A stretch of DNA of 64,000 nt from positions 1 through 64,000 of IMG/VR virus record IMGVR_UViG_2513237329_000013; one strand, written 5' to 3'. The notes beneath the pieces are model-generated. The model saw nothing but the letters and a program-made list of their open reading frames with translations, searched no databases and was not told the DNA's origin. Shown one piece after another: positions 2,672 through 55,102 of the stretch. Origin of the DNA: a virus. Taxonomy: Duplodnaviria > Caudoviricetes. Positions within the stretch are counted from its first letter, which is position 1, and every line of letters begins with the position of its first letter. Position numbers and translations under genes: made by a program.

Positions 2672-2685
2672 TTATATCACCGCCC

Positions 2686-3111
2686 TTAAACCAGCGTATA
2701 ATGCGGCTTCTCTTCTCCGAAAAACCAATATCGAAAATAATCGTCAAGTACAATAGCCACGACAGACAATCCAACCCAAGCAAAGAAAAACGGCAAGCAA
2801 ATTTGCCCTATCAAATTAAACGGTAGATTTGAATAGTCCCACACATTTAATCCAAGCCAAACATTCACAATTAAGCCTGTAATAAATTCAAGAGCGGTTA
2901 CAAGTACACCGCCGATTAAAGCCTGCCATACAATACCAAGTTCCCACGGGAACAGTTCGTTGATTAAACCGATGGAAACAAAGCACATACCGCCAAGAAT
3001 AAACATGGAAATATGACTATGACCGCGCCAGAGCAATTCAATCAAAACATAGGCAGCACCGCCAATAACAAACAGTGCTGCCAGTTTGAAAAATGTCTTC
3101 AGATTACGCAT
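2686..3111 (-). CDS. Four-TM membrane protein (CmpB/putative ABC permease-like family)
   Basis: IELLWRG.SH..MF..GG and WDYS.LPFN..GQICL motifs. Confidence 0.7.
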   Translation of the reverse strand: MRNLKTFFKLAALFVIGGAAYVLIELLWRGHSHISMFILGGMCFVSIGLINELFPWELGIVWQALIGGVLVTALEFITGLIVNVWLGLNVWDYSNLPFNLIGQICLPFFFAWVGLSVVAIVLDDYFRYWFFGEEKPHYTLV

Positions 3112-3978: not shown

Positions 3979-4380
3979 TTACTTGTCCTCCTTTGCTCCG
4001 ACTAAATTTGCAATATAAAGTAAAACATCAATATCAGCGTTGAAAAACTCATGATTCCAAAGCCAATAATCTTCATATTCTGGCCTTTTGTATTGACGGC
4101 ATTTTGGATCTGCCCAGACCTTATCCCATCGGATCTGATAATTACCATCACGCTTAGAAAGTGTTTTTTGAATGGTCTGAGTTAATTTGCCACGACGCAA
4201 ACCGCACTCGTCATCGTTTCTCGCAAAAAACTGATGAGCATTTTCACTTGTCGTATAACAAACAGGAAGACCGTTGTAATAAATAACACCGCAGATTTCT
4301 TCACAAATAGTTGTCGCTGGAATATTTACGCCACCGCAAATAGCAGTGTCCTTCAATCTTCTATGTACAATGTACTGCAT
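3979..4380 (-). CDS. Hypothetical protein directly downstream of the DGR RT
   Basis: 133 aa ORF overlapping the RT 3' end. Confidence 0.7.
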   Translation of the reverse strand: MQYIVHRRLKDTAICGGVNIPATTICEEICGVIYYNGLPVCYTTSENAHQFFARNDDECGLRRGKLTQTIQKTLSKRDGNYQIRWDKVWADPKCRQYKRPEYEDYWLWNHEFFNADIDVLLYIANLVGAKEDK

Positions 4381-5542
4381 CTTTTAATCTCTCCATTGCT
4401 CTGAAATTTTCTATGTTTTCTGCTGAAAAGCCATAGATAGCATAAAAGAGCCGTCGCAGCCTCAACACTCGTTGATGGTTTTGGTAGCTCTCTAAATACG
4501 CAAGCATTCCATTTACAGAAGTCCATAAATCCTCGTAGGACATTTCTCCGTTCTGGACTTTCTCGTAGAATGTTTTGATTTTGTGTCTGGTACGCTTGAA
4601 GCTTCCTCGATTACCAGTCACAATAACACGACCGCTTTCCGTCAAGATATATTTCGCCTTACAATAACGAAACGGTTTGGAGAGCGGAACAATTCTGGAT
4701 TTTTCTTTACTAATTGTCAGATCCAGTTCTGACGCTTTTTGAACAATGAGACGCATGATCTCCTTTGGGTCTTGATTCGGAGGAACTATGATATAGTAGT
4801 CATCCATATAATGACCAGCGCATTTAATAGAGAGCTGGCATTTAATGTAGTTATCGAGCGGAGATGGAAAAGCAATCATTTCAGCCTGACTTGGCTCAAC
4901 TCCAAGCGGCATACCTTTATCGCTGGTGCTTGATGCAACGATATCATCACCAAGCTTGCGTAAATCATAATCATGAATCAGCTTGTCATGACGAGCATAA
5001 ATAACGCGATGCGATGCACTCGGAAAGAATTGCTTGCAGTCTAAAAGGATTATGTTTCCATTTCTCCCATAGCGCTTAAAATGATAATGCAAGTCCTCAC
5101 GCAAAAGTCTTTTAGAGAAATGAAAACCTTTGCCTGGAAGACTTGCTCCGTTATTCCAAATCATATCTGGCAGATATAAAGGTAATAGGACTTTCTTTGT
5201 GTAAACCTTATGTATCTGCCTGTCTTGAATACGAGGTGCGTCAATTGGTCTTGTTTTGCCGCGCTCGGAGATAACAAAATGAACATATGGACATGGCTTC
5301 CACATTTTATCCAGCAGTAATTTTCTCCGCCGCGCCGTGCCAGAAAACAAGTGCATTTCAAATCTTTGTGCGCTATTCTTCCAGCGTACACCGTTGCAGC
5401 ATTGCTTTCCTGCTTTGTATAAGTCGCCATAGGAAAATACATCTGCCATTGTTCCTACAGCAAAGCTTCGTTCTTGTTTCTTGCGCCATCTCTCGGCTTT
5501 CCGTCTTTGGAATCTTGCCTCATGACGCTCTTTGCTTGTCAT
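4361..5542 (-). CDS. DGR reverse transcriptase
   Basis: ERGKTR.I, DRQIH, G..LG..SQ and YMDD motifs; next to TR and avd. Confidence 0.96.
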   Translation of the reverse strand: MTSKERHEARFQRRKAERWRKKQERSFAVGTMADVFSYGDLYKAGKQCCNGVRWKNSAQRFEMHLFSGTARRRKLLLDKMWKPCPYVHFVISERGKTRPIDAPRIQDRQIHKVYTKKVLLPLYLPDMIWNNGASLPGKGFHFSKRLLREDLHYHFKRYGRNGNIILLDCKQFFPSASHRVIYARHDKLIHDYDLRKLGDDIVASSTSDKGMPLGVEPSQAEMIAFPSPLDNYIKCQLSIKCAGHYMDDYYIIVPPNQDPKEIMRLIVQKASELDLTISKEKSRIVPLSKPFRYCKAKYILTESGRVIVTGNRGSFKRTRHKIKTFYEKVQNGEMSYEDLWTSVNGMLAYLESYQNHQRVLRLRRLFYAIYGFSAENIENFRAMERLKDAVHCT

Positions 5543-5775
5543 AAATAGTTATTCGCCTTTCGTACAGTTGTAATATAGAGTGCGCCTAAACTGCTTTGCC
5601 TTGACACATGAAATAGGATTAAGCACAATATCCTCCCACCATGCAAGAAGCGTCCGTGCAAAAGCATCAAAAGAGCGGTTTCGGGTTTTATCCACGGGAA
5701 ACATTTCTCCTTTCGCAAAGGTCTCCGTCATCCTCAAAAGGACTACCGTATTTGACCATACCTAAAAAGGGTTGC

Positions 5776-5900
5776 GAAATCGGGGGCGAGGCCATTGGAA
5801 TTCCTGGCGTTGTTGTTGTTCGCGTTGCCGTTCGTGTTCACATTGCAGAAGTTGTTGCTGTTGTTGTAGTACGGAGAACGCTCCCACCAATTCGCAGTGG
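5776..5900 (-). repeat. DGR template repeat (TR)
   Basis: AAC/AAT-rich 125 bp; aligns without gaps to 6540-6664 and, in part, to 46002-46106, with mismatches almost only at TR adenines. Confidence 0.97.
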
Positions 5901-6452: not shown

Positions 6453-6494
6453 AAATAGAACTCCTTTTTATATTTTGAAAAACAAAAGAAACCC

Positions 6495-6510
6495 GCCCTC
6501 TTTCGAGGGC
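6495..6510 (-). other. DGR target-recognition hairpin after VR1
   Basis: GCCCTC-GAAA-GAGGGC, 20 nt after the target stop codon. Confidence 0.85.
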
Positions 6511-6530
6511 AGGATTCTCTTGATACGGGA

Positions 6531-8561
6531 TTAGACGCGGAAAGCGGGGGCGAGGCCAAGGGAAAACCTGGCGCCGTCGTAGCCCGCGTCGCCGTTCGTG
6601 TCCACACCGCAGAAGTAGGTGCCGTTGTTGTAGAACGGAGAACGCTCCCACCAACGCGCAGTGGTAGAGGTGGAACTATCACGATACTTCACCTTAGAAT
6701 TACCATTCTTGAAGTATTGATACTGTGCCTGATAAGTCTGTTCTGTAGAATTCGCATAGCTTCTACTACCGAAAATCTCATACTCAGCCAATAGCGGCAA
6801 GTAGTCAACAGATGTGGTAACATTCGACGCTGTGTTTGAACCGCCGCCAACATTATCCGTATAGATCGTCATTGGCTGCATCACAGCACGAAGATCTGAC
6901 GGAAGAGCTGCCATTAGCGTATTCGCAACAGGATTTGTCGCAGTCGTAGATGTAGCATCGCCATCATTCGTATTCGTTGAGCCAAGCACATCGTAACGAA
7001 GATCGCAGCCTTTCCAGCCACCAGAGTTCGTATTTGAACTATGGTTCATGTTGAAATATTTCGTTCCGTCTGTGGAATAGCTGTTGTACTTACTGTCTGT
7101 CAAGCAAATATCAACACCATTAGTCAAAGCGGTCTTGAATGTACCAAAATCAATGCCAGTTGCACCATTATGATTAAATCCAAGGATAAAAACATAATAA
7201 GTTCCGCTGACTGACTTAGTACCAACTGTTCCACTCACAGAGACAGCCTTACGATCACCGACCGCCCAATAGCTTGCACCTGTTCCAGAGACACTGTGAA
7301 TAGCCGCCCAAGAGTTGTCATTCAGCGTAGCAAGAATGAACTCAGCTTTGACCGTGACAGTTTTGCTTGCGGGTGCGGTATAGTTCGTACCGGCAGTACA
7401 ACTAACTGTGATAGTAGCTTCTCCGTTTGTCTGATTGACATGAGAAACTGTAACCGTAGTCCCACTACGAGAAGCTGTCGCCACGCTTGTCTTATTAGAT
7501 GTAACACTCAAAGTACCATCATAATTTCCGCCGATTGTAAATGTATCAGTCAGCTTACTTAGGTTCAGCGTGATACTTGTCTTGCTTACAGTCAGCGTAC
7601 CAGTTGCCTTACCGATCTTCCACGAAACAGTCTTTGCCGTAATCGTACCGTCAGACCAGCAATAGTCATCTTTCGGCGTAAATGTAGCATTGTATGTACC
7701 GGCGTTTGTCCCAGATGTCGTTCCGCCAATCGTCATCTTGGATGTATCATAGTTACTCCAAGACGGGGACTGAGAGTTCTTATTGTATGTCAATGTACCA
7801 CTCTGGCTTGGAACAGTCGAAATCTTCAAACGATTTGGAACTCCGGTTATTCTATTACTTGTGTTTACATTAACTGCACCATCCGTAGAGATGGGGAAGA
7901 ATGAAATGTAATAGGTTGTTCCGTTAGTTAGGCCGGTAACAGTAAGTGCGGAATTCGCATACTGATTACGAGTGGTCACATTTAAGCTATAAGCCGCAGC
8001 GCTATCATCTGGAGAAGTTGCGTAGCTTCCAGCCTTAACGACAATCTTTGTGCTTGCCCATGTCGCAAGCGTCACGCCGTCCGAAACTACGGTCGCGGCT
8101 GGATCAGTCCACTTGATTGCAAGCTTTCCATTACCAGCGGCAACGGCGCTTGCACCAGAAATATTACCAACATTTACAGCAGCAGGAGTAACATTGAATT
8201 CGTCCTCCGCACTGTCCGTATATGTACCAGTGGTAGTGTATGGGAACAGCTTGTAGTAATACTTCACGCCGTTAGTCAATCCACTATCACAGAAATAGGC
8301 AGATTTATATTGATCTCGTGTCTTGCTGTCGAGAACGATTGTGCCATCTCTACGACTTGTCGGAGCAGAACCAGCCTTACGAACAAGGAGTGTTCCTCCC
8401 CATGCGGCAAGAGTAGAGCCGGCAACGACCATATCATCAGGATCAGTCCATTTTACATAGACCTTTCCAGCCGCCGCGAGCGTTGCAATTCCCGTAACAG
8501 CAGCAAGGGCAAGTCCGCCGCCAGATCCGCCGCCAGTTGGGAAATTAGAAATAATAGGCAT
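6531..8561 (-). CDS. DGR target 1: tail adhesin with two FnIII-like repeats, Ig-like domains and C-terminal CLec-like (DUF6273-like) domain
   Basis: Duplicated KWTDP..LA.W..KAGS..TR.QY..GLTNG..YY unit; Thr/Ser-rich; ends in VR (WWERSP...GLAPAFRV); last gene of fibre block. Confidence 0.9.
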   Translation of the reverse strand: MPIISNFPTGGGSGGGLALAAVTGIATLAAAGKVYVKWTDPDDMVVAGSTLAAWGGTLLVRKAGSAPTSRRDGTIVLDSKTRDQYKSAYFCDSGLTNGVKYYYKLFPYTTTGTYTDSAEDEFNVTPAAVNVGNISGASAVAAGNGKLAIKWTDPAATVVSDGVTLATWASTKIVVKAGSYATSPDDSAAAYSLNVTTRNQYANSALTVTGLTNGTTYYISFFPISTDGAVNVNTSNRITGVPNRLKISTVPSQSGTLTYNKNSQSPSWSNYDTSKMTIGGTTSGTNAGTYNATFTPKDDYCWSDGTITAKTVSWKIGKATGTLTVSKTSITLNLSKLTDTFTIGGNYDGTLSVTSNKTSVATASRSGTTVTVSHVNQTNGEATITVSCTAGTNYTAPASKTVTVKAEFILATLNDNSWAAIHSVSGTGASYWAVGDRKAVSVSGTVGTKSVSGTYYVFILGFNHNGATGIDFGTFKTALTNGVDICLTDSKYNSYSTDGTKYFNMNHSSNTNSGGWKGCDLRYDVLGSTNTNDGDATSTTATNPVANTLMAALPSDLRAVMQPMTIYTDNVGGGSNTASNVTTSVDYLPLLAEYEIFGSRSYANSTEQTYQAQYQYFKNGNSKVKYRDSSTSTTARWWERSPFYNNGTYFCGVDTNGDAGYDGARFSLGLAPAFRV
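6540..6664 (-). repeat. DGR variable region VR1
   Basis: 21 mismatches to TR over 125 bp by hand count, all at TR adenines. Confidence 0.97.
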
Positions 8562-19808: not shown

Positions 19809-22800
19809 TCAACGCAGCATTGAATTTCCAAAGCTATTTTTCAAGCCCTTTCTTTTCGCAGCCGACATAAGTTTTCCGATAGTGTACTCGGAATAATACT
19901 CAGCAAAGCCCTTCATATTTTCTTCCGTCACATTCTGCATCTGGAAGTAGTTCTGAATAGTAACACGATCATCCGTAGACGAATTATCTGTATTGCTATT
20001 GTCGTTTGTAATCGACTTAACAACCTCAGAAACAGCGGGTGATGTAGAAGTAAGATTGCCAATCAATGAGTCCAAAACACCAGTGATACCATATTTCAAC
20101 GAATTGAAAATACGCATATACTGATCTTTCGTCATGACAAGCTCTCCATCCTTCAAAACAGAAAGGACTTCATCAGCGCCGGTAGCTCGACCGCCAACAT
20201 AACCCTCATCCAAACCAGTATGGAATAGGCGCGGGCCATTTGCAGAATCAAGATACCAAACGCCATTCACTTTAACAACCTTGCGCCCCAATAGAGCGGA
20301 AAGCTGTTCGGCAAGATCCTCGTTCTCCTTAACCAAACGGTTCTTTTCTTCCTGCGTCTTTGCAGTATGCCAACCCTTACTATTTGTCTGCATCTTACTC
20401 AAAATTCTGTCGATTTGCGTTTGCTTATCATCAGCATTTTTTCCAGCGTAGGAAATTTCAGAGTTAATACCGTTCAGCGCAGACACGACATCACCGTATT
20501 CCTGCGCTGCTGCCTTAGCAGTTCGCCAAGCGGAGGTGATAGAATCTTCGCCGTCGATCATATCTCCATATTGCTTATTCCACTCAATTAGGTCTGCGTA
20601 TAGCTGTTCCCAATTGCTGTTGATGCGGGAAATGGCTGCATTATACACCTTTTCTTCCGTATCAACTGTGGACTTCACATAGGAAATTTCATCGTTTTTC
20701 GTGTCTTCAAAAGTATCAGCTTCTTTGTCCAAAGCATCAACTTGTGAATTATACGCATAATCTGCTTGATAGTCAGCCAACTCCTGCTGAAGCTGAGCCA
20801 GCTCTTGTGCCAGCTTTTGCTTTTCAGCATTTGCAGATGCACTCGTATCACGATCCAACTGCGCAAGCTTCGCTTGCTTTTCAGCAATCTCAGCTACTTT
20901 TTCTGCAACAGTTCTTTGATAGTCCTCTTCATCCTTAGTTGCAGAAAGAGACTCTTTCTTCAAATCAATGATTTTACGGAAAGCGTCAATCTGTGCTTCC
21001 AGAGCATCTACTTGATCCTCAGCCTCTTGACGAACAAGCTCCATCGTCATCTCAATGATTTTCGTTAGAGCATCTTTCTGTTCGTTGTAGATTTCAACGC
21101 CCGTTTCGCGCATGAGGCTGTTATACTCTTTCAGAGTTAAAACACCTTCTTCAAATAGGCGATTGATCTCTTTCAGCTTTTGTTTCAGGTAATCAACCTT
21201 GGTGAAGTTGAAATCTCCCCACAAATCAAAATCATCGGCATAATCAATGAAGTCATCAAATGTATCAAGAACATTATCTGCAATTTTAGAGTTAATGTCT
21301 TGAATATCATTATAAGCGCCCCACCATGCGTCAATACAATCTTGAATTGCTTCGTCGTTTTCGTCCAGTCCGAGATCACGCAGACGTCGTTCTTCCTTAT
21401 GAGCTTCTTCTTGAATCTTCTTTTGTTCTTCAAGCTGCTTATAAAGGTTGTCCAACATCGCATCCTTGGTCTGATTGTTGTCCAGCATATCATACTGGTT
21501 TTCCAACAGACTGAGCATATTGTTATGATTATCTACCGCAGTCTGGTAAATATCATGTAACATATCCTCAATCGTATCCTGATAATCCCACCACTTTTTC
21601 TGTAGGTCTTGGATATAATCAGAGGTATCATCTAAACCAAGCGCACGATACTTTTCAGCTTGTGCGTGGACTGTTTCTTGCATCTTCCGATAGATGGCAA
21701 TAATTTGTTCCGGAGTCCCGTCATTCTTCTCCAGAAGGAAAATTGAATGCTCAAAATTTCCAATAATATCGGATAGCTGGTCTTCCAAATCGTCCAGCTT
21801 ATCTTTAAGCTGTTCTTCTAATGTCTTATCGTCAATTGTCGCTTCGACTGTAGCGTTGAATGTGATCGGCGTTCCGGTTGAACCGGTCTTGCCTGTCTCT
21901 ACATGCAATCCGCCTGTCTGGACTCGACCTTTCGCATAAGCTGGGATAACACCCTTGAGCTGCTTGCCAGACCCGTGTACGATACGCTTTGTTTCAGCCG
22001 CAGTGTAAACACGGTCGCCCTGCTTGAGATTAACAACCTCAGCGCCATTTGCACCAGCAAGATAAGCTTTATCGCCAGACTGGATAAGTTCAGCTCCCTC
22101 TTCACCAACCAGCGCATCGCCAGCCGGTGCAGCACCAGTGCCAGAAGCATATCCGAAAATACTTCCAAGAATGCCGCTCTTACGCTTTGTGTCAATCGTG
22201 ACCGTAGCGGTTTGACCGTCCAAATGCTGAACAGCAGTTTGGACGCGCTTTACTGCGGTCTCTGCGTCGCTTGCGGCAGTTTCGATGTTATTAAACTGAT
22301 CAACAACATTATCAGTTGTCTCATCGTCAACATCCTCGACAGCCTGCGCAACGCCATCAACATTAGAAGTTACTGTCGCAAAGTCCAAACCGTTCAGATA
22401 CTCCAGCGCATCTGTCGTATCTTTAATTTCACCTTGCGAATTTGTGAGGGAAATACCGTCTGCTTCACCAAGCTTTGTGATTAGGTTTTCCGCCTGTTCC
22501 TTAGTGAAGTTTAGCTCAGAAAGAAGTGGGGCAAGAGCTTCTGCATCAACATTGACCGTAATACCATCGCTGGCTGCTAAACCAAGATTAGTAAGACTGT
22601 TCGTTAAACCGTCAATGCTGCCCTCTGCATCCAACAATACAACGCCATCGAGGTCTTGTAAACCTGTCAGAATATCATAGATTTCCTTGTCAGTCTTACC
22701 AAGAGTGATAAGCTGATCGGTAAGTGCCGAAACATTGATTGCTTTCTTTCCAGCATTCTCCGCAGATAGACCAATTTCGTCGATAACATCTGCGACCTCG

Positions 22801-25800
22801 TTCATATCGTAGAAATCAATATCTCCCCACATGGAGAGGGCTTCCAGACATGCAAGAACCGCATCTGTCGTAATACCCATCTTTTCGGCAATCGCGTCCA
22901 GATTATCCGGATCAATATCGAAAACATAAGCACCATCAGAATCTTTACTGATATCCAGTAATTTTTCGCCCTGATCATTGACTAACTGACCAGCCTGAGA
23001 CATCTGATATAGCCGTTCAACAAAGCCAGCACCAGCACTGTCAGCGTCCTCAAACACAATCTTGTTTTTCTCCATCGCGGAGTAGATTTCGTCAAGGCCA
23101 TCGCTCCATCCCCATGTAGATAGCTGATCGCTACCAAATAGGAATTCAGCCGCAGCCCAGAAAGCATTTGAGTTGGTCGTGCCTGCTTCAAACTGTTTAT
23201 TCAGTTCCTCAAAGGCTTCTGCATAAGACTTAAAGTCGGTATCCTTTTCCTCGACAGACATGGCAGCATCGTACCGTGCTTTCGCCTCAGTTACGCTATC
23301 AAACTTATCTACCATGCCATCAAGAGCATCGTTGAGCTTCAACGCCTGCTCTGTAATAAGAGCAACACCATCGCCACCCTCAGCCATAACCTGTAAGATA
23401 TGTGCGAGGAATTGCGCATTCATACCGTCTTCATCAAGAACACTGGCAAGAATTCCGCTTTCCTCAGCCAACTCCTTTACATTTTCCGCTGTGATACCAT
23501 CAAGTGTTGTCGAAAGAGTCATCAACTCTTCCTTAGCGTCAGCAAAGTTTTCAGAATTCCAAAGGCTCTTAATCGTGGTCTTGAGCTGTTCAGAATGTCT
23601 CCTTGCTACTTCCTGTTCGCTATTATACTTTTCGATTGCTGCAGTAATATCATCCCAAGTCGTTGCGCCTTGGTTAATAACCGCATCATAAGCAATCTCA
23701 AATTCCTCATCGGATAAACCGCGTAGCTTTTCTTTGACTTCATCAGCCTCAGCAAGCCATGCGTCTAACTCATGGAAATGTGCAGATGTACCAGGCTCAT
23801 ACTGTTCGTAGTTTTTTTGAACTAACGCCTCAGCAATAGCCTGCATTTTCTCGTTGACTTGCTTAGCCTGATTTTCACGCTGATTTAACTCGTCAAGCAA
23901 ACCAGCATAGTAGTCATTCGTACCAAGCGTTTTATCAACAAGTTCCTCAGCAGAATATGTACCATTCTCGTCGAAACTCAAATCGTTCTGAACCTGCTGA
24001 ATCAAATCCTTGCGCATCTTTTCAAACTGGTCAAGGCTTTCTGGCTTCGCAAGCTTCTGAGCAGCAAGGAAAGCGTCTTCCGCAATCATCTGATTGTTTT
24101 TATCAATCTGATCAATCGCGTCGGACAACGCAGCATCATATTCGTTATAAGCATCCGCAAGAACTTCAAACACCGGATTTTCACTTCCGAATTTGTCTCG
24201 AACTGCGTTCATCGCATCCTGTAGATACTTATAATTCGCCGCTAAATCTTCAAATGTGACATCTTTTAAGCCACCATCTGAACTATATACGCTTGGAAGG
24301 AAAATTGTTCCGCCGCCCTTGCTACCACTATCGTCAATGCCAGTAAAACCAAGCTCTTTGAGATACGCCATAGCGTCTCCAGCTTCTTTACCAGTTGCAG
24401 AATAAAAACTATGACTATTGAAATATCCGTCAAGCTCTTTTACGGCATCTTCTTTGGCAACATTAGCAGCACGAACACCTTTTGAAATATCGGTTTGTAA
24501 TTGCGTTCTGGCTGCGTCGATAATATTGTCTCGCAAATCTGCATAGCTACCAGACAAATTATCAACGGCAACGCCCTGATCTTTCAAATAGGAAATTAGC
24601 TCATCCTGAATAGCAATAAGGTCTTCCTGCGATCCAGTGCCAGCTTCAACAGCGTTGCTCAACTCAATATAAGAAGACGCGAGATCATACAGTTTTTGTG
24701 CGTCTTCCGCAGCGGCAGTACCAGCCTCAACAGTAGCCTGACGAGCTTCTTTAGCCTTGTTAATTAGTTTTGAGATTCCAGAAACAATTGCCGAAATAGC
24801 AAGACCAATACCAAGACTAATCAGCATATTCAGAGCGGTCTTTAACACCTGTACGCCGACGGCGGCAGCTTTTGAAGCAACACCCATTGCTGTTGTGGAT
24901 GCAGATGCGTTTGTCATGGATGAACGATATGCGTCAGTAGAAATCGTAGCATCATCTGTCACATGGACAGCCGTTTTCAGCGAACTACTTCCACGGCCAA
25001 TTGTATCGTTCCATACAATCTGGCGTTGTGTCAGATCACTTGTTGATGTGCCAAGACCTTGAATCTTTGTCTTGTATTCATCAAGTAGACGAATATCATT
25101 TTCTAATTCAAGCTTTCCACTATTCCATGCAAATGAAATGCCAGTACCAGTGCCAAGCCAATTCTTCGATGTGGTTGTTTTTAATAACTGAAGCTTATCA
25201 AAGAATGGGGTAATACCAGCAAGAATCGTAGGAAATGCACCAAGCGTTTCAATAAGTTTTGTGAGCCAACCAAGCAATCCAGTTCCGGCATCATATGCAC
25301 CCTTAATCAAATCACTATTCAAAATAGTCTTTGCAAGAGCCTGATACTGAGCTTGGAATTTTTGCTGCTTCGCCTCAATGCTGTCCATCCACTTCTCATG
25401 CTCAGCGAGAGCAGAACCCTCCGCATTAACGGAGGCGTTCATGGCACTAACAGCATCGTCCATATTTTCGATAGCCGCCGCCAGAGCGTTGCCCTGACGC
25501 TTACCGGCCAGCAATTCAAGCAATGCAGCCTGGTCGATATCGCTCATCTTTTCCCAGACCTTGCTAATTCCAAGGATAATTTCATATGTACTCTTGAAAT
25601 TATCAGCATCGGCCATAATATCAAAACCACCAGATCCATCAACATTGGTCAAACCCTTGATTTGATCTTGAAGCTTTGCTGTGCTTTCCGCCATATATTC
25701 GGTTTCAAGACCGGCTTCTTCAAGCTCAGTCTTTGCACCACGAATACGCATGGCAACGGTTTTCCACATTGTACCGACCGCAGCAGGATCTTGTACGACA

Positions 25801-27623
25801 TTATTCGCAGCAACAATCAGAGCGATTGACTCGTCAATTGTATTGTTTGCCGCAGCCATGGCGGAAGCGGAACGCTGCAAAGCATCGCCAACACCGCCAG
25901 AAGAAATAGCAAATTCATTGCCGATTTTATTAAATTTATCAACAATGGTCATTGCATCGCTGGCTTCAATACCAAACGCTTTCATTGTAGAAATGATAGA
26001 GCTGGTAGCCTCGTTTACATCGCTGATTTCATCACCAACGACGCTATAAATTGTAGCAACTTCTGCAAGATCAGAAGCATCAGCCATCGAATAACCAAGA
26101 CGAGCAAAATTAGCAGTTGCAGTTACATAGTCAGAATATGATGTACCAATATCAACTGCCTTTTGTGCAGCATCAGAAAGAAAACGGTCATACGACTCAT
26201 CAGTTTCGTCCGTAACCTTTTTCAGCTCGGTCATCGCTGTGTCCAAATCGACAACAGCGTCATAAAGACCAGTAACACCACGCATGATACCAGCGATAAC
26301 ACCGCCGAGTACCATCCAAGACCCCATCTTTGCAATATTGTTTTTCAGCTCTCCGAATAGAGACTGACTGTGTTTATCTGCGCTAATAAGTTCCTGCTCG
26401 AAAAGTCGAATTTTCGCATTTAGGTTTGTCAGTTCCTTTGAAGAACTAACCATCTGTGACTCATCAAAAAGCTGTTGCCATTTTGACATTAAGCTTGGAT
26501 CGGAAACAAATGCACTATATGTCTGCTTTAGATTCTGAATTCTAAGCTGCGCTGTTTGAATGTTGGAATTTAGCTTTTCTGCATCCAATAACTTCCCAGA
26601 GGCAGTATTATCAAGCTTTATCTGCTTAAACTGCTGTTCGAGTAGCGCAAGCTTATGACGATATGCGTCAAGATCGTTTGGATTTAGTGCATTGTCTAAA
26701 GCAGTCTTAGCCTCTTCTACGCTTGCCTTAAAATCACCGCCGAAAATACCGGCGTTTTGCCATTTCTTGATCTGTGTTTCAAGACTTGCCTGCAACTCAG
26801 CTTTTTGATTTGCAAAAGTATTTGCTTTCAAATCCGTTGCAGCATACGCAGAAGTTTGTAGTTCCTTTGCATAGCGCTGAAGATCAGCAACCATAGAGTC
26901 AATCTCTCTCTTATGCTCAGAAGAAAGAGTGGTGTTTGATTGCTTAATCTCTTCAATACGAGCCTTTACAGCATTCAACTTTTCTTGATACTGATTAAAC
27001 TGCTCCATATCACCAAGCAACGGCTTTGATGTGTTTGTCAATGTCTTGCTTGTAATATCAGCAATTTTCGTATTGATTCTGTTTAGATAGTTAAGCGTCT
27101 GCTCCAAATTAGAACCGGCGTTTTTATCTGTCAAAATAGAGTTACTTTGAACAAACCCTTTTATTGATTGAGCGCCATCTTTGATTTTTGCGAGATTAAA
27201 GTTAAACTTTTCTACAACGCCATCAGCCTTAGTAACGCTGGCAGTGAAACTTTGGATGTTTCCCTTAGAATCCTTAAAGACATTCGTAATGTCCGTCTTG
27301 CCAAGCTTACTGAATTCGGCCTGCGCCCGACTAACGATATCTTTGACTGACGTAAAGTAACGCTGACCGTTAGCCTTTAATTGCGTTGCATCAAAAACCT
27401 GCAACGGCTTATATGTGCCAGTATGGTTTGCACCACCGACCTGCTTGGCGATTGTTTGTAGCTGACTCTGCACCGTTTTAACGGAGTCTTCATCAAAACC
27501 AACCTTCAGCTTTACAGTGTGCGATTCACTCAAAGACTTAGCAATACTTGCAAGCTTAGAATCAAGTGAAGACTGGCTGTTCTCGTCAATCACGGCTTTT
27601 AATAGAATTTGCAGATCATCCAC
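19809..27623 (-). CDS. Tail tape measure protein (about 2600 aa)
   Basis: Long Ala-rich helical ORF with LDTAMTELKKVTD and FARLGYS motifs; GTG start after GAGGTG. Confidence 0.95.
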   Translation of the reverse strand: MDDLQILLKAVIDENSQSSLDSKLASIAKSLSESHTVKLKVGFDEDSVKTVQSQLQTIAKQVGGANHTGTYKPLQVFDATQLKANGQRYFTSVKDIVSRAQAEFSKLGKTDITNVFKDSKGNIQSFTASVTKADGVVEKFNFNLAKIKDGAQSIKGFVQSNSILTDKNAGSNLEQTLNYLNRINTKIADITSKTLTNTSKPLLGDMEQFNQYQEKLNAVKARIEEIKQSNTTLSSEHKREIDSMVADLQRYAKELQTSAYAATDLKANTFANQKAELQASLETQIKKWQNAGIFGGDFKASVEEAKTALDNALNPNDLDAYRHKLALLEQQFKQIKLDNTASGKLLDAEKLNSNIQTAQLRIQNLKQTYSAFVSDPSLMSKWQQLFDESQMVSSSKELTNLNAKIRLFEQELISADKHSQSLFGELKNNIAKMGSWMVLGGVIAGIMRGVTGLYDAVVDLDTAMTELKKVTDETDESYDRFLSDAAQKAVDIGTSYSDYVTATANFARLGYSMADASDLAEVATIYSVVGDEISDVNEATSSIISTMKAFGIEASDAMTIVDKFNKIGNEFAISSGGVGDALQRSASAMAAANNTIDESIALIVAANNVVQDPAAVGTMWKTVAMRIRGAKTELEEAGLETEYMAESTAKLQDQIKGLTNVDGSGGFDIMADADNFKSTYEIILGISKVWEKMSDIDQAALLELLAGKRQGNALAAAIENMDDAVSAMNASVNAEGSALAEHEKWMDSIEAKQQKFQAQYQALAKTILNSDLIKGAYDAGTGLLGWLTKLIETLGAFPTILAGITPFFDKLQLLKTTTSKNWLGTGTGISFAWNSGKLELENDIRLLDEYKTKIQGLGTSTSDLTQRQIVWNDTIGRGSSSLKTAVHVTDDATISTDAYRSSMTNASASTTAMGVASKAAAVGVQVLKTALNMLISLGIGLAISAIVSGISKLINKAKEARQATVEAGTAAAEDAQKLYDLASSYIELSNAVEAGTGSQEDLIAIQDELISYLKDQGVAVDNLSGSYADLRDNIIDAARTQLQTDISKGVRAANVAKEDAVKELDGYFNSHSFYSATGKEAGDAMAYLKELGFTGIDDSGSKGGGTIFLPSVYSSDGGLKDVTFEDLAANYKYLQDAMNAVRDKFGSENPVFEVLADAYNEYDAALSDAIDQIDKNNQMIAEDAFLAAQKLAKPESLDQFEKMRKDLIQQVQNDLSFDENGTYSAEELVDKTLGTNDYYAGLLDELNQRENQAKQVNEKMQAIAEALVQKNYEQYEPGTSAHFHELDAWLAEADEVKEKLRGLSDEEFEIAYDAVINQGATTWDDITAAIEKYNSEQEVARRHSEQLKTTIKSLWNSENFADAKEELMTLSTTLDGITAENVKELAEESGILASVLDEDGMNAQFLAHILQVMAEGGDGVALITEQALKLNDALDGMVDKFDSVTEAKARYDAAMSVEEKDTDFKSYAEAFEELNKQFEAGTTNSNAFWAAAEFLFGSDQLSTWGWSDGLDEIYSAMEKNKIVFEDADSAGAGFVERLYQMSQAGQLVNDQGEKLLDISKDSDGAYVFDIDPDNLDAIAEKMGITTDAVLACLEALSMWGDIDFYDMNEVADVIDEIGLSAENAGKKAINVSALTDQLITLGKTDKEIYDILTGLQDLDGVVLLDAEGSIDGLTNSLTNLGLAASDGITVNVDAEALAPLLSELNFTKEQAENLITKLGEADGISLTNSQGEIKDTTDALEYLNGLDFATVTSNVDGVAQAVEDVDDETTDNVVDQFNNIETAASDAETAVKRVQTAVQHLDGQTATVTIDTKRKSGILGSIFGYASGTGAAPAGDALVGEEGAELIQSGDKAYLAGANGAEVVNLKQGDRVYTAAETKRIVHGSGKQLKGVIPAYAKGRVQTGGLHVETGKTGSTGTPITFNATVEATIDDKTLEEQLKDKLDDLEDQLSDIIGNFEHSIFLLEKNDGTPEQIIAIYRKMQETVHAQAEKYRALGLDDTSDYIQDLQKKWWDYQDTIEDMLHDIYQTAVDNHNNMLSLLENQYDMLDNNQTKDAMLDNLYKQLEEQKKIQEEAHKEERRLRDLGLDENDEAIQDCIDAWWGAYNDIQDINSKIADNVLDTFDDFIDYADDFDLWGDFNFTKVDYLKQKLKEINRLFEEGVLTLKEYNSLMRETGVEIYNEQKDALTKIIEMTMELVRQEAEDQVDALEAQIDAFRKIIDLKKESLSATKDEEDYQRTVAEKVAEIAEKQAKLAQLDRDTSASANAEKQKLAQELAQLQQELADYQADYAYNSQVDALDKEADTFEDTKNDEISYVKSTVDTEEKVYNAAISRINSNWEQLYADLIEWNKQYGDMIDGEDSITSAWRTAKAAAQEYGDVVSALNGINSEISYAGKNADDKQTQIDRILSKMQTNSKGWHTAKTQEEKNRLVKENEDLAEQLSALLGRKVVKVNGVWYLDSANGPRLFHTGLDEGYVGGRATGADEVLSVLKDGELVMTKDQYMRIFNSLKYGITGVLDSLIGNLTSTSPAVSEVVKSITNDNSNTDNSSTDDRVTIQNYFQMQNVTEENMKGFAEYYSEYTIGKLMSAAKRKGLKNSFGNSMLR

Positions 27624-27688
27624 GCACAATCACCTCACTTATAAGTTGTTTAACTAATTTCTTATACAAAGAAAAGAAAGACACCAGA

Positions 27689-45199: not shown

Positions 45200-45251
45200 G
45201 AGAGAATCAGTAAAAGCAGCATCGCCACGAGCAGGCTTCTCTCCTGATGCC
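45200..45251 (-). ncRNA. Minimal HDV-like (theta-type) self-cleaving ribozyme
   Basis: P1 GGCAUC/GAUGCU with G1.U wobble, P2 GAGAGAA/UUCUCUC, P3 GCC/GGC with loop UGCUCGU, P1.1 GC/GC, no P4, J4/2 CUGA. Confidence 0.8.
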
Positions 45252-45252
45252 G

Positions 45253-45667
45253 TGGAGCAGAGGGGAATCGAACCCCTGTCCGAAATTCCTACATGAACAA
45301 AACATTCTTACGCAATAGATAACAATTTGCATTTTGTCCTAAGACGAGCTGCGTGGTGCTATCAACCAGCTCAGAGCCGCACCAGTTTTGCGACCTCCAC
45401 CACCTTATTTCTTTTCACAGTGATAAGGAAAACTGCAATGTCAGTCTGATTCTTTATTACCGCAGATGCTTACCCAGACTAAAAGTGCATCGTTTAAGCA
45501 TTCATCAACTGCAATTAAGCAGCAATACCCTCCATAACAGCATACAGAGCGGGATGAATCATAACCACAATAGAATCGTTGTCATTTCATTTTTGTTTGA
45601 GCCTTAGGCGGTCTCCATACCTGCGTATTTCGTCCTATCAAAACCCCGTCGAACCCATTACTGCCCC
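45253..45667 (-). ncRNA. ssrA: tmRNA
   Basis: 5' GGGGCAG..GGUUCGACGGGG; 3' GGGGUUCGAUUCCCCU-CUGCUCC-A with G3.U70; internal tag frame ending GCU GCU UAA. Confidence 0.93.
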
Positions 45668-45871: not shown

Positions 45872-45947
45872 TGGTGGAAACAATGAGAATCGAACTCACG
45901 ACCTCCTGCTTGCAAGGCAGGCGCTCTCCCAACTGAGCTATGTCCCC
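45872..45947 (-). tRNA. tRNA-Ala(TGC)
   Basis: G3.U70; loop CTTGCAA; CCA. Confidence 0.93.
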
Positions 45948-45991: not shown

Positions 45992-46798
45992 TTAGGAGCT
46001 AAAAGCGGGGGCGAGGCCAAAAGAACCCCTGGCGTCGCCGGTGCCCGCGTTGCCGTTCGCGGACACACCGCAGAAGGTGCCGCTGGCGTCGTAGCACGGA
46101 GAACGCAACAGGTTACAACGACGATTTCCGTCATCATCTTCCTTATAGTAAGGAACATCCTCTTGCTTATAATATTCGTACCAATGCCCCTCGCCAGGCA
46201 TCGAATAGAAACAACGACCATACAGCTCTTTCTCGCTCTTGAGCCAAATCTTACAAACGCTCTTGATAATTTCCTTACTGCAATCGCCAGCGCTTGTAAG
46301 TTTAACAACCGGCTTAATAATTGCCTGCAACTCATCAGAGCAAAGAGAGAAGAACTCCGTATCCAGCCTACGTCTTACAACAGAAGCTTCATATCCGCCG
46401 CAATTCGTACTTTCGTCGTTCCACGACCAGTCCTCGTTGTAAACTCTGACCATATCCCAAGAGAGAGGTGCTTTTCCAGTCCCATCAGCAAGATCATCAT
46501 GGTTAAATCCGATAATCTGCCACACAGCAACAAATCCGTTCTTCATGTGGTCTTTCTTTTGTGCGCCAAGCGCAAATACTTCACGCGCCTTACCAGACAA
46601 TCCGATCTGATCAATTTCACCCCAAGAAAGATGGTTCAAATCCTTCAAAGGCATTGCAAGCGGCGCTTTACAAACAGTGTCAACAATATGTTCACTCGCC
46701 AAGCTATCATCGAAACTGAGAGTCACAGCATCGCCATCACAGACGATATTCATTGCCGAAAATTTGCTAAGATCCTTTGTTGCAATTTTGAACTGCAT
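45992..46798 (-). CDS. DGR target 2: stand-alone CLec-like (DUF6273-like) protein
   Basis: Shares LN..SW..I, I.GFNH, N.GG....R and L.A...P motifs with the target 1 C-terminal domain; ends in VR2. Confidence 0.9.
   Translation of the reverse strand: MQFKIATKDLSKFSAMNIVCDGDAVTLSFDDSLASEHIVDTVCKAPLAMPLKDLNHLSWGEIDQIGLSGKAREVFALGAQKKDHMKNGFVAVWQIIGFNHDDLADGTGKAPLSWDMVRVYNEDWSWNDESTNCGGYEASVVRRRLDTEFFSLCSDELQAIIKPVVKLTSAGDCSKEIIKSVCKIWLKSEKELYGRCFYSMPGEGHWYEYYKQEDVPYYKEDDDGNRRCNLLRSPCYDASGTFCGVSANGNAGTGDARGSFGLAPAFSS
46002..46106 (-). repeat. DGR variable region VR2 (remote)
   Basis: Gap-free match to TR 5777-5881; 23 mismatches at TR adenines and one silent C>T by hand count. Confidence 0.95.
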
Positions 46799-46842
46799 GA
46801 AACACACCCCTATAAAAATTATTTTGCTAATTCCTTAGAAAG

Positions 46843-47471
46843 AAAATTCAATACTTGAATCATACCTATCATTGAGCCTTCGCTCTACCTCCATTACCTT
46901 CTCACAATGTTCAGCCACCAGGGAGATAAGTCTGAGCTTCAAGGAGCGACCTTTAACTTCTTACCCCAGCCTTACACAGCGAACTGTATTAGGCCAATTC
47001 CTGCGCGGGATTGTTTACCCGCAAATTTCACCGTTCGTTCAGAAAATTTGATAGTTTCATACAATTTCTTTTTCATCATATCGTATTAAAGATCAAACAC
47101 CAAAACTGTCCTACGGCTACTTTAACCGACGACTTTCGTTATAGTCGAGTTTCTTCGACATCAAGACAGGAGCGCATTGTTGGCATTTCCTCTGGTTGTA
47201 CTGGTTGCCACGCCAGTATCCTTGAGGATTATTCTCCACAGGAGCGTCTATTGCTGCGCCCGAAAGTTCCGTGCTTTTTGTAGCGATAACTCTTGGCAAC
47301 ACACATTTTCGTTGGCAGTTTCCGCCTCCCAGCAATACATCACTGCATCACTGCCGTCTGGACAATAAAAGGTATCCCTCGTAAATCCAGCGGGAACTAT
47401 TGTGCGTCTCGGAGTGCTGACACACTTTATTCACCGAGTTAATCATAAGCATGATTCAAATATTGAATTTT
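46843..47471 (-). ncRNA. Large ornate ncRNA, ROOL-like (about 630 nt)
   Basis: No credible ORF; about 30-bp terminal helix joins the two ends; many internal hairpins including a UUCG-capped one; size and tRNA-cluster context fit ROOL as I recall it. Confidence 0.68.
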
Positions 47472-47480
47472 CAAAGATCA

Positions 47481-47556
47481 TGGAGCTGGCGACAGGACTT
47501 GAACCCGCAACCTGATGATTACAAATCACCTGCGCTACCAATTGTGCCACGCCAGC
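47481..47556 (-). tRNA. tRNA-Thr(TGT)
   Basis: Loop TTTGTAA; CCA. Confidence 0.92.
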
Positions 47557-47589: not shown

Positions 47590-47618
47590 AGTATAACATA
47601 TAAGCACACGGTTGTCAA
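47590..47618 (-). promoter_or_regulatory. Near-consensus sigmaA promoter for the RNA cluster
   Basis: TTGACA-17-TATACT with extended TG, 33 nt upstream of tRNA-Thr. Confidence 0.8.
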
Positions 47619-50003: not shown

Positions 50004-52778
50004 TCATGCGACGCTACGCTGACGTCGTTTCTTCTCACGCTCATAATTGCGAATATGGATAGCCTGACAGTCATCGCAGCGCTTCTTATTTTTCACGATA
50101 CCGTCTACCTCAAACTCTTTTCCACAATCAATACACCGCAGTTTCTTTTTGCCGAGTGGGTGATATCCAGAGCAGCTCGTACATACCTTTTGCTGCGGTG
50201 AAAGAGGAACAAAACGCTCTCCACATTTCTTGCACTGAATAGAACCATCTGGGATATTTCGCTTGAGGTTTTCCAGAACGATATCACCAAAGCACATCCA
50301 GAAAACATTTTTCCTACGGCTATTCTTACTATGAAATAGATATTTCACAAGAATGTCGCAAACATCTAAGCGCTCAAGACAAATCTCGTCGAATTGCTTC
50401 AAGATATTGTCCCGAATATATGCAAAGTTCGAGTCATCATCATAAAAGCTGATCGAATAGCGATACTGCTTTTCCACATCATTGTACAGGTCAGTCACAG
50501 ACGATAGTAACTCAACCTGTTTCATCGGGTTACTAAGCATATACTGATATCTGAAGACACCAATATTCTTCGCGGCAAAAGACATCCGCTTATTAGGAAC
50601 GATGTGTTCAAGCTGATTCACAACACTATTGTTCATTCGCTGAACCTGAAATTTTGTTTTCTTTTTAGCGTGGATAAAAAAATGCGGCGCTTTCATACTC
50701 GTAATTCTTGCAAGACGAGCATTGATTTCATCTGGTCGAGTTGGCTTATACAGCGTCTTGGCATAGTCGATACAGAAGTTATTCTCCATACATAAGATTT
50801 TAATTGCTTCTATGTCAACATCCTCACCGTTCCAAATCTTCGTAATATCATTGCTAATAACACCGATATTGCCACCAGTCCATGCGGCGCGAAGCCCTTT
50901 GAAAATTTCCTCTGGTGTAATCGTAACAGCGCCAGCCTTTGCCATCTCGTAGTATAAAGGAACGATTCCTTCCATATTGCGCTCAGCAATAGACACAAGT
51001 AAGGAATCAGCGCATACGAGACTTTTATCTCCGTCGCAATCAAATTGTAGGATCTTTGAAATTAGATCATGACAGCTCGTATAGATAGCATTTTGAGAAA
51101 ACCACTTTTTCGTTGCACTGGTTACAACATTTTTACGAACAGCATGTTCACGATATAAGTGGGGTGAACGCAGACAGTCCAATTTACTCACTGTGCGATA
51201 AAGATAGCAAGACACCTCTCCATCTGCAAGCAAGCCAACAGGACTGCGATTTCCAAGAAACAGCCATTCGCAGAAAGCATAGAGATCTGGAATCAAGAAC
51301 ATATACTTTGCGCTCAAATCAATCTTTGCTGCTCTTGCCTCAGTAACAAGATTCTTCTTGATTTGCCGTAGCATCTCTTTTGTGTATGGGTCGGAGAGCA
51401 ATTCCGGATAGATACTAAGACACTCCTGAAAAGCATTCTTATTGCGATACTGTGTAGAAGCCCCGAACACATCCAGCATAGTATTCTTATCCGATGCAAT
51501 TTTAGCAATTTTGTCAATCGTCTTTCCAGCAAGCTGCTCAAGTTCATCTGTACTCAAATCTGTGAGTGTTTGAAGCATTTGATAGTTAAGCTTTGCATCA
51601 GGAATGAAGTCCTCTTCCTCATTACACTTACCGACAGTGCATCCATTTGCTAAAAACAAATCAATGTACTCTTGCCAATTCGCGTAATACTTGTACATCT
51701 TAAATTGACTTTTTGTAAAAATGACCTGGATACCCTCTGCGATTACATCATGTTCAAAACCATAGATGTCTGTTACCAAACCATGATTTACGGACGGATC
51801 GCGTTCGTTTGATTCTAAGATAAACTTATCAAACGGGAATACAGCAAGAAGCCCTTTTACCCACGGAAGACGAACCATAGTGTTTTTTGCATTACAAGAG
51901 GGAAGAACCATTCCGCAGCCATCCGTATGTGTAATTGGAATCTCCATATCTCTGCGCTCAACACTGTATGTTTTGTGATCAATAAAATCAACAGTTCCAC
52001 CAACCATCGTTTCCATATCATCTACAACGATAGTCTTTCTAATATCGAAATCTTCCCACAAATCAGTTGCGCTATTGCACAGTGCAAGATACGCCAGATA
52101 CTTATTGATATTGATTCCACCAAGCTCGTTGATTTTTTGAACGCTCAGTCCACACATAATGGTTTTTTGATACTTCTCCCAAACTCTTTCCTTAATGAAA
52201 ACAGTTTTCTTTGTTCTGATCTGTCCAGCAGATGCCGTAAAACAAATGTAGCGTTCTCCGTTAAAGGTATACCCATTTAGGATAAGATCTTCAATCACAT
52301 CGAAATAATATGTGCGAATAACCATGAAATCGTCATACAGCTTTCCTGTTTCCATGCCAAGTGTTCTTGTAAGCATCGACTCAAAAACAGAAATCACATT
52401 CTTATCAACCACATATTCAGTCCGTAACTCACGTTGCGAGCGATGTGCTTGAAGAAGTGATACAAGTTCAGACTTCTTAATCTTAATCATCTGGTTCGTA
52501 CCGCGAATTTCTTTCGCAATCTGTTTTACACGGGAACTATCCATCGCAACAGAAATCGGATCTGACTTTCCCATGCCATACAATTTACGAAACTGAGATT
52601 CAGCCTTCTCTTGTGTTATTTCTCCAGCACACAGCCGCTCAATAATTTCTCGCTCTGATTTTAATTTCGATTTTGAAGAGCAGTGCTTATTGATCTCAAC
52701 CTCAAGTGCCTTTTCTTCGTCGGTGTAAAACGCACTCGTGTCAAAACTATAAATATGGATTTGCCGATCAAGACTAAT
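50004..52778 (-). CDS. YonO-like single-subunit RNA polymerase with C-terminal Zn ribbons; probable ATT start
   Basis: TASAGQIR.KK, TDGCG, RLPWVKG, RSPH and catalytic DCDGD; frame stays open 65 codons upstream of the listed TTG. Confidence 0.88.
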   Translation of the reverse strand: MSLDRQIHIYSFDTSAFYTDEEKALEVEINKHCSSKSKLKSEREIIERLCAGEITQEKAESQFRKLYGMGKSDPISVAMDSSRVKQIAKEIRGTNQMIKIKKSELVSLLQAHRSQRELRTEYVVDKNVISVFESMLTRTLGMETGKLYDDFMVIRTYYFDVIEDLILNGYTFNGERYICFTASAGQIRTKKTVFIKERVWEKYQKTIMCGLSVQKINELGGININKYLAYLALCNSATDLWEDFDIRKTIVVDDMETMVGGTVDFIDHKTYSVERRDMEIPITHTDGCGMVLPSCNAKNTMVRLPWVKGLLAVFPFDKFILESNERDPSVNHGLVTDIYGFEHDVIAEGIQVIFTKSQFKMYKYYANWQEYIDLFLANGCTVGKCNEEEDFIPDAKLNYQMLQTLTDLSTDELEQLAGKTIDKIAKIASDKNTMLDVFGASTQYRNKNAFQECLSIYPELLSDPYTKEMLRQIKKNLVTEARAAKIDLSAKYMFLIPDLYAFCEWLFLGNRSPVGLLADGEVSCYLYRTVSKLDCLRSPHLYREHAVRKNVVTSATKKWFSQNAIYTSCHDLISKILQFDCDGDKSLVCADSLLVSIAERNMEGIVPLYYEMAKAGAVTITPEEIFKGLRAAWTGGNIGVISNDITKIWNGEDVDIEAIKILCMENNFCIDYAKTLYKPTRPDEINARLARITSMKAPHFFIHAKKKTKFQVQRMNNSVVNQLEHIVPNKRMSFAAKNIGVFRYQYMLSNPMKQVELLSSVTDLYNDVEKQYRYSISFYDDDSNFAYIRDNILKQFDEICLERLDVCDILVKYLFHSKNSRRKNVFWMCFGDIVLENLKRNIPDGSIQCKKCGERFVPLSPQQKVCTSCSGYHPLGKKKLRCIDCGKEFEVDGIVKNKKRCDDCQAIHIRNYEREKKRRQRSVA

Positions 52779-53855: not shown

Positions 53856-55022
53856 CTATGACCTGTACATCTTTCTGATTCTAACGATATTCTTTCCAAG
53901 CAATTCGGCGGCACGAGTGACTTCTTCAACCGTCGTATTCCATCCGAACGAAACTCTAATTGTAGACTTCGCCTGCGTATAATTCCGCCCAATGGCGCTT
54001 AGAACATGACTTGGTTCTAAACTGCCGGCAGAGCAAGCAGAAGCAGCAGAAATACATACACCGTCCGAATTCATCAGATGAAGAATAGCCTCAGATTCAA
54101 CATCATTTATTGTAATACTCAAAATACTGCTTAGCTGATATGATTTCTCATAATGCTCATTGACCTTGATTCCTTCGTCGCATACAGAATATAGCTTTTT
54201 CAAAAATGCTTTCCGTAGCACCAATGCGTCACGAGAAAATTCGGTTGGTATTGAAAACTTTGCTGCAGTACCAAGCGCAACAATACCAGCTACATTCTCC
54301 GTGCCGGCTCTCACGCCAAATTCTTGTCCGCCGCCGTATATAATCGGCTCAATATGCTTTTTAAGCCCGCCGCGCACATACAAAGCTCCAACACCAATCG
54401 GCGCACCGAACTTATGCCCACTGATAGACAGCATATCAATTCCGTAAGCATTTACATTGACATCAATATGCCCAACCGCTTGCACTGCATCTGTATGGAA
54501 TACCGCACCATAGCAATTACAAAGATCTGCAATGCTTTTTATGTCCTGAATAACACCGATTTCGTTATTTACCCACATGACAGACACAAGACCTACATTG
54601 TCTTCTTTGAGATATTTTTCAAGTTCAAATAAATCAACCTGACCATATGTATCAACGGAAAGCGGTTTCACGACTATTCCAAGGCGAGTCAGTAAGTTAC
54701 ACTGGTTCAAAATGGCGTGATGCTCAATTTGGCTAACAAGCATTACATTATGATTCGTTGCATTTAGAGCAGATGCCATTCCTGTGAGAGCCAAATTATC
54801 TGACTCAGATCCACCAGAAGTAAAAATGATTTCTTCTGGGCTATCCGCACCGATTAGCTTAGACACATCAAAACGAGCCTGATAAATGGCTTGGTGTGCT
54901 TGTCGGCCAGCGGAATGAAGAGAACTTGGATTGCCACATTTTCCAGAACTATACCAATAATTCAAAGCTTCATATACAGGCGGTCGAATGCTTGTTGTCG
55001 CTGCATGATCTAAATAAATCAT
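53856..55022 (-). CDS. iscS: Cysteine desulfurase (IscS/NifS group I)
   Basis: IYLDHAATT, GNPSSLH, TSGGSESDN, HTDAVQ, SGHK (PLP Lys), RAGTEN, SACSAG (catalytic Cys). Confidence 0.92.
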   Translation of the reverse strand: MIYLDHAATTSIRPPVYEALNYWYSSGKCGNPSSLHSAGRQAHQAIYQARFDVSKLIGADSPEEIIFTSGGSESDNLALTGMASALNATNHNVMLVSQIEHHAILNQCNLLTRLGIVVKPLSVDTYGQVDLFELEKYLKEDNVGLVSVMWVNNEIGVIQDIKSIADLCNCYGAVFHTDAVQAVGHIDVNVNAYGIDMLSISGHKFGAPIGVGALYVRGGLKKHIEPIIYGGGQEFGVRAGTENVAGIVALGTAAKFSIPTEFSRDALVLRKAFLKKLYSVCDEGIKVNEHYEKSYQLSSILSITINDVESEAILHLMNSDGVCISAASACSAGSLEPSHVLSAIGRNYTQAKSTIRVSFGWNTTVEEVTRAAELLGKNIVRIRKMYRS

Positions 55023-55102
55023 CGTTTTCTCCTTTATGGGTGGACGGGCAAAGCCCGTCCGCGCCACGCTATCACAAAAATTACACACTAACATTTAGAT
55101 TG

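Follow-up and report, generated by a model that had tools for sequence, protein, structure and literature searches.

A predicted full-length ROOL RNA in the tRNA array of a gut Clostridia prophage

Results

Prophage setting and host

The window analyzed here, a 64,000-nucleotide stretch of viral DNA, is the first half of a 127,251-bp provirus in IMG/VR (record IMGVR_UViG_2513237329_000013), and the genes in it lie almost entirely on the minus strand. The provirus encodes a large terminase, a portal protein, a 2,606-aa tape measure, a tail protein, an exonuclease, a YonO/RdRP-like polymerase and a reverse transcriptase. Its 21 tRNA genes and a tmRNA gene form a same-strand array, and inside this array sits a region that matches the ROOL family of large structured RNAs (Table 1). 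The closest cellular relatives are found in Clostridiales bacterium CCNA10, where the terminase is 91% identical and the ROOL 78% identical over its full length, followed by relatives in Oscillibacter and Butyricicoccus MAGs. Because the terminase and the ROOL point to the same organisms, we take the host to be a gut Clostridia lineage.

Several other minus-strand genes of the window deserve mention. The tmRNA (45250-45667), which lies inside the tRNA array, matches its Rfam model over the full length with 86.5 bits and received no call from ARAGORN. At 50004-52583, 2.5 kb upstream of the RNA array, is a gene for an 859-aa protein that matches the Pfam RdRP family (PF05183, E 4e-15) and phrog_8308 (E 4e-255) and is probably a YonO-like single-subunit RNA polymerase. 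A class-V aminotransferase or cysteine-desulfurase-like protein encoded near the tRNA array (53856-55094; PF00266, E 4e-79) may supply sulfur for tRNA thiolation. The tape-measure-type protein, encoded at 19809-27629 and bearing a PhageMin_Tail domain, is unusually long, and its 2,606 aa imply a very long tail.

Table 1. Features of the ROOL locus, in the order in which the minus strand is read.
Feature	Coordinates	Strand	Basis or remark
Sigma-70-type promoter, TTGACA-17-TGnTATACT, 11 of 12 plus extended -10	47590..47618	-	just upstream of tRNA-Thr
tRNA-Thr(UGU), encoded CCA	47481..47556	-	ends 8 nt before P1
ROOL RNA gene including extended basal stem P1	46842..47472	-	RF03087 match, terminal inverted repeat, fold z
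P1, 5' strand, 16 model pairs and 16 further outward pairs	47441..47472	-	inverted repeat, covariation
Hairpin CUCGG/CCGAG	47438-47434 / 47412-47408	-	
Apical stem (P7, Kretsch numbering), CUCC-UGU-GGAG, minimal (4 bp, 3-nt loop)	47234..47244	-	RF03087 alignment
Loop L8, UGGCA, one side of inter-subunit kissing loop (bridge B4)	47206..47210	-	equivalent to env-120 307-309
Hairpin UACUGG/CCAGUA	stem P8	-	
J6/8, UGCCA, partner of L8 (bridge B4), 5 complementary bases	47181..47185	-	covaries with L8
Pseudoknot, 5' side, UGUC, pairs with GACA	47165..47168	-	compensatory changes in 3/4 pairs
Hairpin GUCGA/UCGAC	47159-47144	-	
Pseudoknot, 3' side, GACA, at linker start	47107..47110	-	pairs with UGUC
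Variable A/U-rich internal linker, 76 nt	47036..47111	-	insertion and loop columns of model
UCUGA, 3' flank of linker, pairs with UCAGA in J17/18	47039..47043	-	standard pairs
Hairpin GCGGG/CCCGC	47022-47005	-	
Hairpin UACAG-UUCG-CUGUG	46988-46975	-	
P18/L18 hairpin, AAGG-UCGCU-CCUU	46941..46953	-	L18 loop UCGCU equals Rfam consensus
UCAGA in J17/18, within invariant CUCAGACUUAUCUCC core	46931..46935	-	pairs with UCUGA
P1, 3' strand	46842..46873	-	inverted repeat, covariation
268-aa gene, DUF6273 C-terminal domain (PF19789), remote DGR target	45992..46798	-	starts 43 nt after ROOL
tRNA-Ala, next gene of same-strand RNA array	45872..45947	-	tRNA call

Identity of the RNA

ROOL is Rfam family RF03087 (Weinberg et al. 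2017, PMC5737381). An Infernal scan of the window against all of Rfam placed a match to this family at 46855-47462 on the minus strand with 394.1 bits (E 7e-91), where the gathering score is 99.1 bits; the match spans positions 1-574 of the 574-position model without truncation and was reproduced in a second search. The RNA measures 608 nt by the model match, or 631 nt once the extended basal stem is counted, which falls within the length range that we used for the family (about 550-660 nt, mean 581 nt), and it is present as a single copy in the 127-kb genome. Folding of the whole 631-nt element gives -210 kcal/mol, with a z of -5.4 relative to dinucleotide shuffles. At the gathering threshold, GOLLD and all other large-RNA families are without a match, both in the window and in the 63 kb of genome beyond it. 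A sequence-only reading made before this analysis had preferred ROOL to GOLLD or a new class, and this preference is borne out by the full-length RF03087 match and the missing GOLLD match. That reading had also placed the RNA at 46843-47471; the position stands, whereas the ends lie slightly farther out (46842-47472) and the RNA is read from the minus strand. Judged by its sequence, this region almost certainly encodes the full-length ROOL RNA of a 127-kb prophage of a gut Clostridia bacterium, and the copy is a typical, textbook member of an already known family in its usual setting.

Basal stem and internal helices

A repeat search recovered a terminal inverted repeat with two 32-nt arms, 88% complementary and 567 nt apart, at the ends of the element, where complementarity over about 30 bp had been noticed before; the end sequences quoted then sit exactly where they had been placed. 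By a rough estimate of our own, not computed by any tool, such an inverted repeat has a chance of about 1e-5 to 1e-4 per 64 kb. In the RNA the two arms form the basal stem P1. All 16 of the 16 P1 pairs in the Rfam model show compensatory changes in the 42-sequence alignment described below, and 16 more canonical pairs continue outward of the model stem; sister lineages keep these with compensatory changes, and similar outward extensions occur in many distant lineages. Because the P1 pairs covary across lineages, we regard the terminal stem as a conserved RNA helix, which the extra outward pairs lengthen to a basal duplex of about 32 bp.

The five internal hairpins named in the sequence-only reading are all present, each as a helix that belongs either to the Rfam-aligned structure or to a local insertion. 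When the Rfam consensus structure is projected onto the window ROOL, 128 of its 153 model pairs are canonical and 25 are non-canonical, some of the latter owing to a one-base register offset in the Rfam annotation, as at GCGGG/CCCGC.

The length of the apical stem varies within the ROOL family and relates to hexameric versus octameric assembly: an ultrashort apical stem accompanies the hexameric L. salivarius ROOL, and the E. faecalis and env-120 ROOLs are octamers (PMC12990946). Since the stem is minimal in the window ROOL, bridge B3 of env-120 is probably absent from it, and the choice between 6 and 8 copies is not predictable. A blastn search against plasmids returned only core matches of 46-62 nt, from Paraclostridium and Enterococcus, which are too short for a comparison with the apical stems of the ROOLs solved from L. 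salivarius and E. faecalis, and thus yield no stoichiometry prediction.

Covariation across 42 ROOLs

A pattern built from two invariant ROOL stretches retrieved 77 loci in IMG/VR, and all 50 of the 50 IMG/VR records then searched contain a ROOL above the cut-off. With flanks fetched and duplicates removed, 42 distinct ROOLs from viral contigs were aligned (alignment A1). Their identity to the window ROOL is 72-99.8% where they are alignable over most of their length; the more distant lineages can be aligned with it only in the conserved 3' core, and the GGGGUAAGAAG...CUCAGACUUAUCUCC core of the 3' domain is invariant or nearly so in this alignment. A blastn search of the window ROOL against the INPHARED phage collection found nothing.

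Under the projected structure, 75.2% of paired cells in the 42 ROOLs hold a pair, compared with 57.5% in shuffles. The covariation score is 0.494 versus 0.188 in shuffled alignments, a value that none of 500 shuffles reached, and it falls to 0.10-0.18 when partners are slid by 1-3 columns. Changes on both sides are seen in 124 of the 153 pairs. Covariation analysis of these 42 sequences hence supports the ROOL fold together with two tertiary contacts.

Tertiary and inter-subunit contacts

Kretsch et al. list the env-120 positions of covarying long-range pairs (Supplementary Table 3, PMC12286853), and from these positions we mapped the corresponding contacts, locating them relative to the flanking helices. 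Across the 42 sequences, the 14 long-range pairs are 89% paired, versus 25-38% when slid. Bridge B4 joins neighboring subunits in the ROOL cage (PMC12286853), and its two sides, L8 and J6/8, vary together as UGGCA/UGCCA, UGAGA/UCUCA, UGAU/AUCA and UGGA/UCCA in different lineages; in the window ROOL this kissing loop is kept, as complementarity. The UGUC/GACA pairing is an intramolecular pseudoknot equivalent to env-120 349-352 with 406-409. The UCUGA/UCAGA pairing, equivalent to env-120 458-461 with 578-581, consists of five pairs that are all standard in 41 of the 41 sequences with letters there, and it is invariant, hence without covariation. L18, whose loop has the consensus sequence here, is a symmetric kissing loop between half-shells that forms bridge B6 (PMC12286853).

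The internal linker folds no better than shuffles (z = -0.35), is unalignable between lineages and, in the window ROOL, has no tRNA inside. By analogy with the solved structures, it is the match of the disordered loop inside the cage. As far as the primary sequence can tell, all assembly-relevant features that we examined in the window ROOL are intact.

Promoters and flanking tRNAs

The window promoter has counterparts elsewhere. With one representative taken from each of 23 lineages, a strong promoter (at least 10 of 12 plus TG) was present within 200 nt upstream on the ROOL strand in 13. The same criterion picked out 2 lineages when applied downstream and none when applied to the opposite strand, and shuffled sequences gave 0.1 on average. 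The tRNAs that flank ROOLs are all co-oriented with them, in 51 of 51 loci, many of them lie directly beside it, at 0-25 nt, and in several lineages they touch or slightly overlap one end of the ROOL model or both (-10 to +25 nt); several ROOL loci have no tRNA within 2.5 kb. At the window locus no intrinsic terminator was found on the minus strand between ROOL and the next gene. Co-transcription of ROOLs with tRNAs was suggested by Weinberg et al. (PMC5737381), and our counts of co-orientation, abutting tRNAs and promoters support it; they also suggest that tRNA-processing enzymes define the ends of ROOL in many phages.

Several lineages have a tRNA or a tRNA-like gene that begins 0-2 nt beyond the end of the ROOL model match (L115:2197-2267 and L118:3086-3156, and also in G035, G044 and G006), such that RNase P cleavage there would create the exact ROOL 3' end.

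The downstream DGR target gene

The window contains a diversity-generating retroelement (DGR) on the minus strand, comprising a reverse transcriptase (4361-5542), an RT-2 RNA (5535-5760, 130.9 bits), which appears to be the accessory RNA of the DGR here, and a template repeat (5777-5881). An adjacent variable repeat (6493-6645) marks the 3' end of ORF 6531-8561; 40 kb away, beside ROOL, is a second one. The latter, at 46002-46106, occupies the 3' end of the DUF6273 ORF, and 23 of its 24 mismatches to the template repeat fall at template adenines, on the coding strand.

The DUF6273 gene is limited to its own lineage (90-93% identical) and the next one (58-59%) and occurs in no other lineage. 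In relatives without this ORF, ROOL is followed by a tRNA-Ala after 117 nt (G017) or 36 nt (G028). The gene is probably an insertion into an older tRNA-ROOL-tRNA array and unrelated to ROOL function.

Embedded tRNAs and paired ROOL genes

Two other ROOLs hold a full-length tRNA in the linker (L115:1955-2026 inside ROOL 1600-2195, and L116:2668-2740 inside ROOL 2501-3094), which makes 2 of the 86 usable loci. Both belong to complete 38-41-kb phages with direct terminal repeats. The embedded tRNAs score 53 and 51 bits with Rfam; ARAGORN identifies one as tRNA-Phe GAA and gives the other an odd anticodon loop of 8 nt. In a third relative, L118, all that the ROOL linker shows of a tRNA is a T-arm remnant. 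We found no published report of a tRNA inside a ROOL linker; the embedded tRNAs that we found reported are those of GOLLD only.

One 75-kb phage contig (L120) carries two clearly different ROOLs on the same strand, about 5 kb apart (2501-3147 and 7583-8177; 275 and 304 bits), with differing L8 and J6/8 sequences. They raise the question of whether the two RNAs would build separate or mixed cages.

Discussion

ROOL structures have been solved for the env-120 octamer (PDB 9MDS, PMC12286853), the E. faecalis octamer and the L. salivarius hexamer (PMC12990946). The window copy shares with known ROOLs the full-length model match, the multi-junction fold, the pseudoknots, the complementarity of L8 and J6/8, the consensus L18 loop, the variable unstructured linker and the prophage location beside tRNAs. 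It differs from them in its P1 of about 32 bp, in an apical stem of 4 bp with a triloop, in a downstream neighbor that is a DGR target gene, not a tRNA, and in its gut Clostridia host. GOLLD (Weinberg et al. 2009; env-38 14-mer, PDB 9MEE) is likewise a large phage or prophage RNA of tRNA arrays that forms an RNA-only cage with a disordered interior linker. The GOLLD linker sometimes carries a tRNA, as do the two ROOLs described here, but the two families are unrelated in sequence and fold, GOLLD is larger and has another stoichiometry, and its model has no match in the window. The phi29 prohead RNA (pRNA) also is a phage-encoded RNA that oligomerizes through intermolecular loop-loop base pairs, although it has no relationship to ROOL in sequence or fold. 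Far smaller than ROOL, pRNA acts in DNA packaging, as a ring on the portal.

Two readings would deny that the RNA is a ROOL at all, and we give each of them next to no credence. The RNA could be a GOLLD, or a member of some new, unclassified family of large ornate RNAs, and be ROOL-like only in size and context; GOLLD and ROOL do share their occurrence in tRNA arrays and prophages (PMC5737381), and nothing beyond. This idea is refuted by the Rfam scans of the window and of the rest of the genome, in which the ROOL match is full length at four times the gathering score and GOLLD has no match, and the ROOL-specific invariant motifs and tertiary pairings are present as well. Alternatively, the 32-nt terminal inverted repeats might mark a MITE-like mobile element, or the region might code for small proteins, given that short ORFs of 59-90 aa overlap it. 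We reject both versions because the element is a single copy in the 127-kb genome, because the arms of the inverted repeat covary between lineages as the strands of an RNA helix do, and because, compared by overall length, the longest stretch without a stop ranges from 47 aa in some lineages to 137 aa in others, unlike one conserved frame.

The reading to which we commit is that the window ROOL would be strongly expressed, mature out of a transcript of the tRNA operon and build cages. ROOLs self-assemble without protein into hollow hexameric or octameric cages, as published for three to four other ROOLs (PMC12286853; PMC12990946; PMC12515178), and such cages persist at nanomolar concentrations. 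Assembly also goes on when the interior linker is deleted. RNAs fused to the ROOL 3' end, a tRNA precursor included, are displayed radially outward and leave the cage undisturbed (PMC12515178). For the window ROOL, host RNA polymerase would start at the near-consensus promoter (47618-47590), with a predicted transcript order of tRNA-Thr, ROOL, the DGR target gene, and then tRNA-Ala and onward. Enzymes that process tRNA ends would release the RNA, and an RNase III cut of the basal stem of about 32 bp is a further possible release route. The freed RNA would self-assemble, protein-free, into a hollow cage of eight or possibly six copies, and the unstructured 76-nt linker would lie inside.

As to what such a cage does, we found no function assigned to ROOL in the literature as of late 2026, and the L. 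salivarius ROOL is highly abundant and reported to be non-essential (cited in PMC12286853). Our guess, offered tentatively, is that the abundant cage, acting as compartment or sponge, takes in some component of translation or RNA turnover while the phage grows, and works alongside the phage set of tRNAs and tmRNA. We rank this above its main rival, in which ROOL serves the tRNA operon: multimerization would gather polycistronic tRNA precursors, fused at the outward 5' and 3' ends, into a hub for processing or storage, and in some phages the cage would shelter a tRNA within it from being processed or cleaved. The co-oriented tRNAs that abut ROOL on both sides at -10 to +25 nt in several lineages, the full-length tRNA in the linker of two phages, the engineered 3' fusions with their radial display (PMC12515178), and the "inhibited storage" proposed for GOLLD (PMC12990946) all speak for this rival; however, embedded tRNAs are rare (2 of 86 loci), the window linker has none, and several ROOLs lack a tRNA within 2.5 kb, and we consider it unlikely. 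Somewhat more doubtful still is the broader proposal that ROOL is a tRNA-centered phage device, driven by a strong host-type promoter of its own and physically joined to tRNAs at the outward ends and, in some phages, in the linker, the cage of which would store, shield or present phage tRNAs or decoy host enzymes that cut or process tRNA during infection. It is highly improbable that, in its own lineage, the window ROOL works with the DGR-diversified DUF6273 protein, for instance by scaffolding it or by acting in cis for the remote DGR target. The gene is a true DGR target and follows ROOL by 43 nt on the same strand with no terminator between, yet it is present only in the two nearest lineages, and G017 and G028 have a tRNA-Ala in its place. 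Because of this confinement to two lineages, we reject a functional link between the DUF6273 gene and ROOL.

In itself the window ROOL matters little, as about 1,600 members of its family are already catalogued and several structures have been solved. Its value is that of a well-delimited natural example in which the promoter, a flanking tRNA, an extended basal stem and a minimal apical stem are mapped. The additions made here are modest: the constant co-orientation of tRNAs, the recurrent upstream promoter, the P1 of about 32 bp and the linker tRNA in two small phages. Some of these by-products, namely the co-oriented tRNAs, the recurrent promoter and the occasional linker tRNA, could guide experiments on ROOL function, and the linker tRNA of the two 38-41-kb phages offers a natural handle for testing a tRNA-centered role of these cages.
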